A stretch of 64,000 nt of DNA, taken from assembly GCA_963743525.1 (NCBI GenBank), contig CAVUQH010000024.1, positions 65,763-129,762 on the forward strand. The letters run 5' to 3'. Position 1 is the first letter of the stretch; each line of letters begins with the position of its first letter. The translations under genes and the position numbers were made by a program. Source of the DNA: an uncultured delta proteobacterium (GTDB lineage: Bacteria; Myxococcota_A; Polyangia; Haliangiales; Haliangiaceae). Below are positions 14,437 through 15,140 of this stretch, piece after piece. The notes under the pieces were generated by a model, which ran no database searches, was not told the DNA's origin, and saw nothing but the letters and a program-made list of their open reading frames with translations.

Positions 14437-14482
14437 AGCCAACACGAAACGGAGACGCCCGGGCGGCCAGACGGTCCCCGGG
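14437..14482 (+). terminator. Putative intrinsic terminator after atpE (stem acgcccggg / cccgggcgt)
   Basis: acgcccgggcggccagacggtccccgggcgttctt: 9-bp perfect stem, 13-nt loop, then TCTT. Confidence 0.45.
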
Positions 14483-14502
14483 CGTTCTTGCGTCCGGAGG
14501 AG

Positions 14503-14968
14503 CCCGTGCCCGCGCTCGTGCCCGCGCTCGGGCTCGGGCTCGTGCTCGTGCTCGTGCTCGTGCTCGTGCTCGTGCTCGTGCTCGTGCTCGTGCTCGTGCT
14601 CGTGCTCGTGCTCGTGCTCGTGCTCGTGCTCGTGCTCGTGCTCGTGCTCGTGCTCGTGCCCGTGCTCGTGCTCGTGCTCGTGCTCGTGCTCGTGCTCGTG
14701 CTCGTGCTCGTGCTCGTGCTCGTGCTCGTGCCCGTGCTCGTGCTCGTGCTCGTGCTCGTGCTCGTGCCCGTGCTCGTGCTCGTGCCCGTGCTCGTGCTCG
14801 TGCTCGTGCTCGTGCTCGTGCTCGGGCTCGTGCTCGTGCTCGTGCTCGGGCTCGTGCTCGTGCTCGTGCTCGTGCTCGTGCTCGTGCTCGTGCTCGTTCC
14901 CGTGCTCGGGCTCGTGCTCGTGCCCGTGCTCGTGCTCGTGCTCGTGCTCGGGCTCGTGCTCGTGCCGG
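14503..14968. repeat. Hexanucleotide microsatellite (GTGCTC)n, ~77 units with sparse point variants (gtgccc, gggctc)
   Basis: Direct reading. On the minus strand it would encode (His-Glu)~78 with occasional Gly/Pro substitutions; on the plus strand (Leu-Val)n. The ORF track shows 14038..15141(-) and 14488..15174(+), neither credible as a gene (see findings). Confidence 0.95.
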
Positions 14969-15140
14969 GCCATGGGCACGGGGAGCAGGGGGCTCGCGCT
15001 CGTGAGTTTCGATCGTCGCCCAGTGCTCGGCGGCGTCAAGAGTTCGCGCGCGCGTCGCGCGCGCCGCTTCGCGCTCTTGACCCCGCCTGCGCGCTGGGCG
15101 GTGAGGGGTTCCTCACTTTCACGAGTAGGAGGAACTCTCA

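Follow-up and report, generated by a model that had tools for sequence, protein, structure and literature searches.

A (GTGCTC)77 microsatellite at the edge of an inserted four-helix-bundle gene cassette downstream of atpE in a Myxococcota genome

The stretch of DNA analyzed here (the window; 64,000 nt of contig CAVUQH010000024.1 from the Haliangiaceae assembly GCA_963743525.1) belongs to a Myxococcota genome, has a GC content of ~70%, and carries an array of 77 GTGCTC hexanucleotide units shortly downstream of atpE. This (GTGCTC)77 tract is a real, non-coding microsatellite and not a gene for a histidine-rich protein. Judging from sequence comparisons, the array and the four-helix-bundle (4HB) gene that follows it form a single inserted unit of recurrent architecture, which had gone unseen in the initial annotation. 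We consider it probable that the array is slippage-prone and represents the orphan, hyper-expanded 5' arm of a selfish 4HB cassette resembling the intervening sequences (IVS) of rRNA genes.

A near-perfect (GTGCTC)n tract of ~465 bp and ~77 copies had been described initially, and this description was borne out. Tandem Repeats Finder (TRF) located the array at 14505-14965 (period 6, 76.8 copies, 93% matches, 0% indels, score 803), and an in-register count from position 14506 gave 77 units over 465 bp (14506-14970; no strand assigned), of which 60 were perfect and none contained an indel. The units comprised 60 GTGCTC, 7 GTGCCC, 6 GGGCTC, 2 GCGCTC, 1 GTTCCC, and 1 GTGCCG. Likewise, a 12-mer probe consisting of two units matched 68 times in the window, every time within the tract, with a chance expectation of 1.04. 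As short-read contigs often break at such arrays, the copy number is given as assembled and may be inexact. With its head-to-tail units in the 1- to 9-nt range and their high identity, the array qualifies as a bacterial simple sequence repeat (SSR). Calculated per 120 nt, the two strands fold at -34.8 kcal/mol (z -8.7) and -29.6 kcal/mol (z -5.8) as DNA and at -55.1 and -35.5 kcal/mol as RNA. Both strands are predicted to form periodic '((.' hairpins, in which two Watson-Crick pairs alternate with a T.T or A.A mismatch. Stability is greater for the strand with the T.T mismatches. The GC skew was too weak for assigning the replication strand.

The array starts 81 nt past the atpE stop codon (14422-14424), at the end of a series of plus-strand genes comprising gyrA, hemL, atpZ (PF09527), atpI, atpB, and atpE. 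A terminator-like hairpin of host sequence (14452-14485, plus strand; fold of 14425-14505, -37.3 kcal/mol, z -2.25) lies in between and delimits the insertion on the left. The closest relative (L001) has the same gene order and the same hairpin, and its AtpB and AtpE are 95% and 97% identical to those of the window. After the hairpin, L001 contains neither the repeat nor a 4HB gene; ~154 bp of unrelated spacer are followed by the stop codon of the convergent gene. Homology between the window and L001 was confined to 14300-14497 and 15495-15693 (blastn, alignments), and the break-points at 14497 and 15495 therefore delimit an insertion of ~1 kb at 14498-15494 (no strand assigned), which includes the array, a leader, the 4HB gene, and a 3' hairpin. 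Beyond the insertion, the convergent genes are an outer-membrane-like gene, a gene for a cyclic nucleotide monophosphate-binding protein, moaC, and glmS.

The tract had initially been placed where atpF would normally follow, which is wrong for this clade. Among 36 related loci (one genome per species, all Myxococcota-type metagenome-assembled genomes [MAGs] of Kofleriaceae, Haliangium, and others), the operon consisted of atpZ-(I)-B-E with atpE as its last gene in 36/36 cases. As atpE closes the operon throughout, no atpF is missing, the tract does not occupy its place, and this explanation was rejected. No hexamer array or His-rich frame was present at any of the 36 loci. A promoter and terminator consensus scan of 14000-15600 likewise returned nothing, including no sigma-70-type promoter, and it missed the atpE hairpin because this hairpin is not followed by a T-run. 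A repetitive extragenic palindrome (REP)-like hairpin unit of ~57 nt (CACCCTGAGCG...GTCGAAGGG) fills the empty atpE site of L001 (7342-7381). The same unit lies directly 5' of the 4HB cassette at L158 (2712-2823) and L159 (628-807), with two copies in one sample and three in the other; the window contains no copy.

The ~1-kb cassette is ordered as array, ~95-nt hairpin leader, 4HB (Avd-like) gene of the TIGR02436/PF05635 family, and 3' hairpin. The features originally noted around the tract, namely the atpE hairpin, an alternating-CG tract, a small hairpin, a ribosome-binding site, and a four-helix-bundle gene, are all present. The array ends 170 nt 5' of the 4HB start codon and ~100 nt 5' of a TTGAC element. 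A conserved cassette leader (14983-15140, plus strand) begins 13 nt past the array, as judged by blastn alignments to L158, L171, and L172 that start at 14983-14987. It contains a long hairpin of ~95 nt (15017-15110, plus strand), which also occurs at L158 (2885-2975), L166 (1378-1470), L169, and L171-L174. Within this hairpin the motif GTGCTCGG occupies 15023-15030, the arms of the core stem lie at 15029-15042 and 15074-15087, the apical region corresponds to the alternating-CG tract, and TTGAC is part of the 3' arm. The motif is identical in 8 of 10 distinct leaders, and TTGAC is found in the 3' arm of 9 of them. In the 10 leaders the 14-bp core stem is 92% paired, with 9/14 pairs changed on both sides, a result reached by 0/500 shuffles. 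RNAalifold predicted 25 pairs, 14 of them compensatory, from eight full leaders, and the single-sequence fold of the hairpin had an energy of -93.2 kcal/mol (z -3.8). A search of Rfam over 13900-15700 gave no match at an E value of ≤1 and no rRNA match. The leader hairpin is a candidate for a new cis-element 5' of 4HB genes.

A smaller hairpin (15103-15140, plus strand) is predicted by single-sequence folding, in which the Shine-Dalgarno (SD) sequence (AGGAGG, 15127-15132) pairs with an upstream GUUCCUC, suggesting that translation of the 4HB gene may be controlled at this site. The gene itself (15141-15461, plus strand) encodes a protein of 106 amino acids belonging to the '23S rRNA intervening sequence protein' family (PF05635, 39.1 bits with a cut-off of 33.8; TIGR02436, 44.2 bits with a cut-off of 24), with similarity to Protein Data Bank (PDB) entry 2GSC (XCC0516; E value, 1.5e-4). 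The RxxxSxxxNxxE motif given for the family (PMC3936711) is found in the window protein as RRSIKSVALNIAE. The database search returned 494 homologues, and scanning viral contigs with this 4HB protein gave no hits. A GC-rich 3' hairpin (15468-15492, plus strand; fold of 15455-15510, -33.6 kcal/mol, z -3.0) abuts the stop codon of the convergent gene at 15495-16055, and a hairpin 3' of the 4HB stop codon was present in every cassette examined. The repeat unit is the same as the motif conserved among the leaders, and a CTCGTG is also found at the leader's 5' edge; both are plausible seeds for expansion.

The association of array and 4HB gene is not limited to the window. A 56%-identical 4HB homologue at L131, one of the loci matched in the metagenome scan for GTGCTC units described below, carries a 38.8-unit array ~168 nt 5' of its start codon, and the genomic contexts of ten further homologues were compared after it. 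A period-6 or -7 repeat occurs at the same 5' edge, directly before the leader, in 13/13 homologous cassettes, some with traces only. At least 13 copies are present in 10/13, with a maximum of 136 units, and the units differ. Two convergent cassettes at L157 have ~35 and 41.5 units (GTGCTC/GTGCGT). A single locus recovered from six samples (L160-L165) has 95 units (GGTCGA/GAGGGT) over 573 bp, L166-L168 have 54 GGCGAG units, L169 has 13.9 copies of a 7-mer, L171 has 13.8 degenerate GGGGCG units, and L173 has arrays of 26, 25, and 35 units. At L174 (300-1503), a divergent cassette pair is separated solely by (CGCCAA)49.5 and (GCGGAA)86.5, together 812 bp; the left 4HB copy of this pair has a divergent C terminus and may be decaying. 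Only ~3-unit remnants were seen at L158/L159 and L172. At L133, where the 4HB gene is more distant, (GCTCGT)3.8 precedes the gene and (GAGCAC)8.7 follows it; the unit and its orientation are those of the window. Among paralogous cassettes, blastn homology starts exactly where the arrays end. G-quadruplex or Z-DNA formation was rejected as a common property, as it is limited to certain units (for example, GGGTGA and GTGCGT).

The equivalent arrays are variable in length. At one locus with an identical 4HB protein, the number of GAGGGT units varies with the sample (29.5, 31.5, or at least 49.7), and five long contigs break off within the GAGGGT block. Downstream at the same locus, the counts are 37.5 against 33.5 units. 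At the window locus itself, the array is present in the window and absent from L001. These differences support the earlier proposal of a hypervariable, non-coding SSR. Of the initial interpretation as a whole, this part is supported, whereas the His-rich peptide gene, discussed below, and the missing atpF are not.

Arrays also flank 4HB genes that are only distantly related. Using tblastn against annotated plasmids, ten loci from cyanobacteria and Azospirillum were compared, at which the genes are labelled 'four helix bundle protein' or 'S23 ribosomal protein'; all those tested are members of TIGR02436. Purine-rich arrays with units of 7 to 8 nt abut the gene at 9 of the 10 loci, and at 8 of those 9 the reverse-complement array abuts the stop codon. 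Examples are Oscillatoria, with (GAGTGGGA)23 upstream and (TCTCCCAC)8.6 downstream; Nostoc edaphicum, with (AGAGGAGC)4.9 and (CTCCTCTG)5.2; Tolypothrix, with (GAGCAGGG)3.4 and (CTCCCCTG)3.5; and Anabaena sp. 90, where ~40 heptamers precede the gene and (CTGTCAC)4.3 follows it. The pattern is similar in Azospirillum, Geminocystis, Nostoc punctiforme, and Calothrix. At these eight distant loci and at L133 and L160, the complementary arms are 18 to 137 nt long and 76 to 100% complementary. Each locus uses its own unit and the arms are complementary all the same, which amounts to covariation at the level of whole arms. Overall, 16/22 arrays lie ≤100 nt from gene ends, an enrichment of ~44-fold (one array was reclassified by eye). 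The heptamer array flanking the Anabaena sp. 90 gene spans ~300 bp. The 4HB genes on the Pseudanabaena (L179) and Anabaena sp. 90 (L180) plasmids lie within CRISPR-cas operons (after cas2, and between cas6 and cas4), in agreement with the 4HB-CRISPR-cas association reported in PMC3936711.

These observations are consistent with a model in which the complementary arms of the relatives would pair, either in the transcript or in single-stranded DNA, to give a long stem around the open reading frame (ORF). Such an arm-paired stem would correspond to the arrangement of 23S rRNA IVS, which are excised by RNase III. In the window cassette only the 5' arm exists, and CTG/CAG-like hairpins on each strand most likely drove runaway replication slippage to 77 units. 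Growth of the array was presumably tolerated because nothing at the cassette edge seems to be constrained in length. At present the array could act as an RNA processing site, as an insulator after the atp terminator, or as a DNA substrate for mobility.

Several observations weigh against this interpretation as an IVS-like arm. No inverted partner of the array exists anywhere in the 64-kb window, which precludes for this array the stem formation that may take place elsewhere. Complementary arms among the Myxococcota cassettes are limited to L160 and L133, and the two arrays at L157 are direct and not inverted repeats. The sense strand reads GTGCTC in the window and at L157a and CACGAG at L131, L157b, and L158, the window having the less common orientation, which it shares with L157a and L133. 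Array orientation is thus not fixed, which argues against a strand-specific RNA role. The GTGCTC unit expands in unrelated contexts (metal-transporter loops, apparent [ST]n linkers, and the edge of a Y1 transposase gene) and so is not specific to the cassette. The case for cassette mobility is built on one pair of filled and empty sites together with paralogy; genomes carry several copies of the 4HB family, in some cases as pairs on one contig. Finally, the ~23 loci compared (13 close and 10 distant) are a small sample that was not randomly drawn and is not a census.

A broader version of this interpretation can be put forward only tentatively. Across phyla, 4HB genes may be selfish IVS-like cassettes whose ends consist of complementary short tandem repeats, so that the arms can pair in any register and the stem is acted on by RNase III or by a single-strand DNA transposase. 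In high-GC Myxococcota the arms would then have grown without restraint to several hundred base pairs, with the (GTGCTC)77 array as an example. If this were true, such a cassette could sit harmlessly in rRNA genes, operons, and 3' regions, and 4HB cassettes would represent an unrecognized class of repeat-bounded mini-element, which would explain both the scattered distribution of 4HB genes and the source of giant bacterial microsatellites.

Among the alternatives, a phase-variation (contingency) switch, in which changes in the number of units alter either transcription or the read-through that reaches the 4HB gene from the atp operon, is unlikely. The array does lie between the atpE terminator and the 4HB leader, and homologous arrays are length-polymorphic in natural samples. 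Repeat tracts upstream of promoters modulate expression in Neisseria and Haemophilus. However, array lengths range from 3 to 136 units, with differing sequences in either orientation, which is a poor fit to a spacing-sensitive switch. Moreover, the window array ends ~100 nt 5' of the sole -35-like element (TTGAC, in the 3' arm of the leader hairpin), in a region where the scan had found no sigma-70-type promoter.

Mobility at the DNA level, with the array as the target or terminal structure for an HUH (Y1, IS200/RAYT-like) transposase that mobilizes the 4HB cassette in trans, is equally unlikely. It would draw on two 83%-identical copies of a 1.09-kb element (L085, 204-1312; L112, 4272-5497) that encodes an IS200-like Y1 transposase (Y1_Tnp, PF01797; E value, 4.5e-7), carries (GTGCTC)13-16 exactly at its left edge, and has a nested hairpin leader. 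Both copies come from the same metagenome as L131 and L157, and the five arrays found there share one unit type. In addition, the cassettes have hairpins near both ends, like the ends of IS200/IS605 elements. The Y1 elements edged by GTGCTC arrays suggest a possible link to single-strand transposition. Against this, tblastn with the L085 Y1 protein found no Y1 transposase gene in the 64-kb window, the empty site in L001 has no array, which thus was not a pre-existing target there, and the units differ between the adjacent paralogous cassettes of L174. IS200/IS605 transposition is not known to generate arrays of tandem repeats.

The distribution of the hexamer itself also bears on this point. 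An exact scan of metagenome contigs for eight GTGCTC units returned at least 120 stretches. Among the matches listed, arrays had 8 to 54 units, with many at contig ends and many without a start codon, and most adjoined neither a 4HB nor a Y1 gene. The leader motif, in contrast, occurred among the matches listed only beside 4HB genes. The GTGCTC unit is generally expansion-prone. In metagenome Ga0154020 (72% GC), more than 12 contigs contain (GAGCAC)n arrays (for example, L104, 6998-7045; L156, 3452-3505; and L139, 3447-3536), some of them in apparent coding linkers in other frames, such as (ST)n (DNA read by eye), and others between convergent genes. Expansion of the hexamer may thus be a genome-wide tendency in that community.

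An assembly artefact, whether a collapse, an expansion, or a chimeric join, is very improbable. The source is probably a MAG, and breakage of short-read contigs at such arrays is common, as mentioned above. However, the 17 variant units are interspersed in a non-periodic pattern, both flanks join correctly to conserved host genes, and equivalent arrays occur at the same cassette position in assemblies produced independently (JGI, ENA, and NCBI) and in finished plasmids.

There is even less reason to regard the tract as a stand-alone gene for a minus-strand (His-Glu)n metal-binding protein resembling Hpn, the possibility raised in the initial annotation. As described there, the minus-strand frame (14038-15141), which reads MARHEHEPEH(EH)n, has no SD sequence and its first stop is at 14038, and a plus-strand (LV)n frame (14488-15174) starts at a TTG. 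The His-Glu (HE) frame is open, has an ATG at 14972, and uses GAG and CAC, which are preferred codons. Furthermore, the same hexamer encodes (HE)n tracts of 8 to 26 units in real CDF, LarC, ZnuA, ZIP, and HypB proteins; among the scan matches listed, true coding loops with 8 to 26 HE pairs were found in CDF, LarC, ZnuA, ZIP, and WS/DGAT proteins. These genuine (HE)n tracts are always attached to a recognizable domain. The window frame, in contrast, has no attached metal-handling domain, and neither it nor the LV frame matched Pfam. The ATG is preceded by ccccgtgccc and not by a purine-rich SD sequence, and the frame has no stop of its own, running ~390 nt antisense to atpE/atpB before the stop at 14038. 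In L001, where there is no repeat, this antisense frame is just as open, and the open tail is therefore a by-product of atpE codon structure. In the non-repeat flanks the GC content at third codon positions (GC3) is 0.62 to 0.71 (0.71 in the N-terminal extension and 0.64 in the C-terminal part), compared with 0.88 to 0.96 in neighboring genes. All 17 variant units (17/17) are non-synonymous in the HE frame, which is weak evidence.

A search of 5.8 billion proteins gave no identical or homologous entry for the HE frame. Its only matches were His-rich loops within domain proteins (HypB, LarC, NicO, CDF, and UreE), none of them identical to it, whereas the adjacent 4HB protein was present in the same collection at 100% identity. 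Equivalent arrays use other units (GAGGGT, GGCGAG, and GCGGAA) in either orientation and have no conserved ORF. A translated fusion of the array with the 4HB ORF was likewise rejected, as the frames are continuous only at L131 and not in the window, at L157a, or at L158. Open frames through such arrays should accordingly not be annotated as His-rich, (LV)n, or (EG)n proteins. The remaining alternative, that adjacency to the 4HB gene is coincidental and the array is neutral junk expanded in a permissive intergenic region, is just as improbable as the protein gene: GTGCTC arrays do occur in many unrelated contexts, but at least 13 copies lie at the same edge in 10/13 cassettes, with remnants in the other 3, against a background of ~1 array per 100 kb (443 kb of related DNA contained 5 arrays of period 5 to 7 with ≥8 copies, counting the focal one; of the four others, the one in L003 codes for the acidic tail of GyrA and another is the degenerate array at 470-738 of the window described below), and arrays are enriched ~44-fold at the ends of distant 4HB genes.

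Two other repeat regions were observed in the window. A second, degenerate array at 470-738 consists of six GCGTGAGCGGTC 12-mers followed by GGGCGC/GGGTTC hexamers (TRF, 44.7 copies, 68% matches). It lies just 5' of a minus-strand gene at 51-419, and no convincing ORF with a start codon spans it. On the minus strand at 3081-4560, large tandem repeats with periods of 103 to 247 encode Cys/Pro-rich CDPTDPNCVPPPP modules. Their reading is split over two overlapping frames (3081-4076 and 3334-4560), which could reflect a frameshifted gene, an assembly error, or two genes.

Bacterial chromosomes very rarely contain hexamer microsatellites as long as those seen here (77 to 136 units), which mark the border of a small gene cassette that recurs. 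A search of the full-text literature yielded no description of the widespread, functionally obscure 4HB genes being linked to flanking, often complementary, tandem arrays, although an older account may exist. If general, this linkage would provide a structural definition of 4HB cassettes together with the hypothesis of an RNase III-processed stem. It also offers a reason why some high-GC assemblies break at such sites.

Among known systems, the closest counterparts of the cassette are the 23S rRNA IVS, which carry a PF05635 ORF in Leptospira, Coxiella, and others and whose paired ends form a stem that is removed by RNase III. The two share the protein family, the character of an insertion, and, in many relatives of the cassette, complementary ends able to form a stem. 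An ORF bracketed by complementary ends was found at the eight distant loci and at L133 and L160, not in the window cassette, which has a 465-bp 5' arm only. The window cassette further differs in being intergenic, between atpE and an outer-membrane-like gene, and not within an rRNA gene. Its arms are tandem 6- to 8-nt units, whereas those of IVS are unique inverted repeats, and the Myxococcota subfamily has an extra local 25-bp leader hairpin. Descriptions of the PF05635/IVS family are given in PMC3936711 and PMC10053308. PF05635 also resembles Avd (PMC10053308), the accessory protein of diversity-generating retroelements (DGRs), and both belong to a homologous four-helix-bundle fold family, with PDB 2GSC as a relative. 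However, the window protein did not match the Avd equivalog model NF033474. A DGR was rejected on this basis and because no reverse transcriptase (RT) or template/variable repeat was found among the neighbors within ~5 kb, the part of the window to which the check for RT was confined.

As a repeat, the array resembles the simple-sequence contingency loci of Haemophilus, Neisseria, and Mycoplasma, the short tandemly repeated repetitive (STRR) heptamers of cyanobacteria, and the intergenic TAACTGA repeats of Beggiatoaceae (PMC4679880), all of which are short-unit, head-to-tail, length-polymorphic tracts that arise by slipped-strand mispairing and are often located just 5' of genes. In contrast to these, the window tract is far longer (77 units, and up to 136 in relatives) and is tied to one gene family; the cassette unit differs for each locus, relatives have a complementary array across the gene, and no on/off phenotype is known. 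REP/BIME-RAYT systems and IS200/IS605 elements are comparable in their hairpin-containing intergenic repeats and in the Y1 element edged by a GTGCTC array in a related metagenome. However, the array units are not palindromic REPs, and the window contains no Y1 gene. An integron attC site was rejected because the stem arms, GTCAAGRG ... CYCTTGAC, lack the GTT/AAC triplets of RYYYAAC ... GTTRRRY cores, no intI is located nearby, and the leader hairpin is upstream and not downstream of the ORF.

At the protein level, Hpn and Hpn-like His-rich proteins of Helicobacter (PMC4671568) and the His-rich loops of HypB, LarC, CDF, ZnuA, and ZIP proteins are related to the tract in that the same hexamer encodes (HE)n loops of 8 to 26 units. 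The window frame differs from them in having no domain, start or stop signals, coding signature, or conservation. The folding behavior of the array is instead reminiscent of CTG.CAG repeats, in that both strands form two pairs followed by a T.T or A.A mismatch, with the T strand more stable. The hairpins of CTG.CAG repeats are the proposed structural basis of their large expansions. The present repeat is bacterial, with a hexameric (GCT)(CGT) unit, and the 4HB cassettes and their arrays may offer a natural bacterial system of CTG-like, hairpin-driven repeat expansion.

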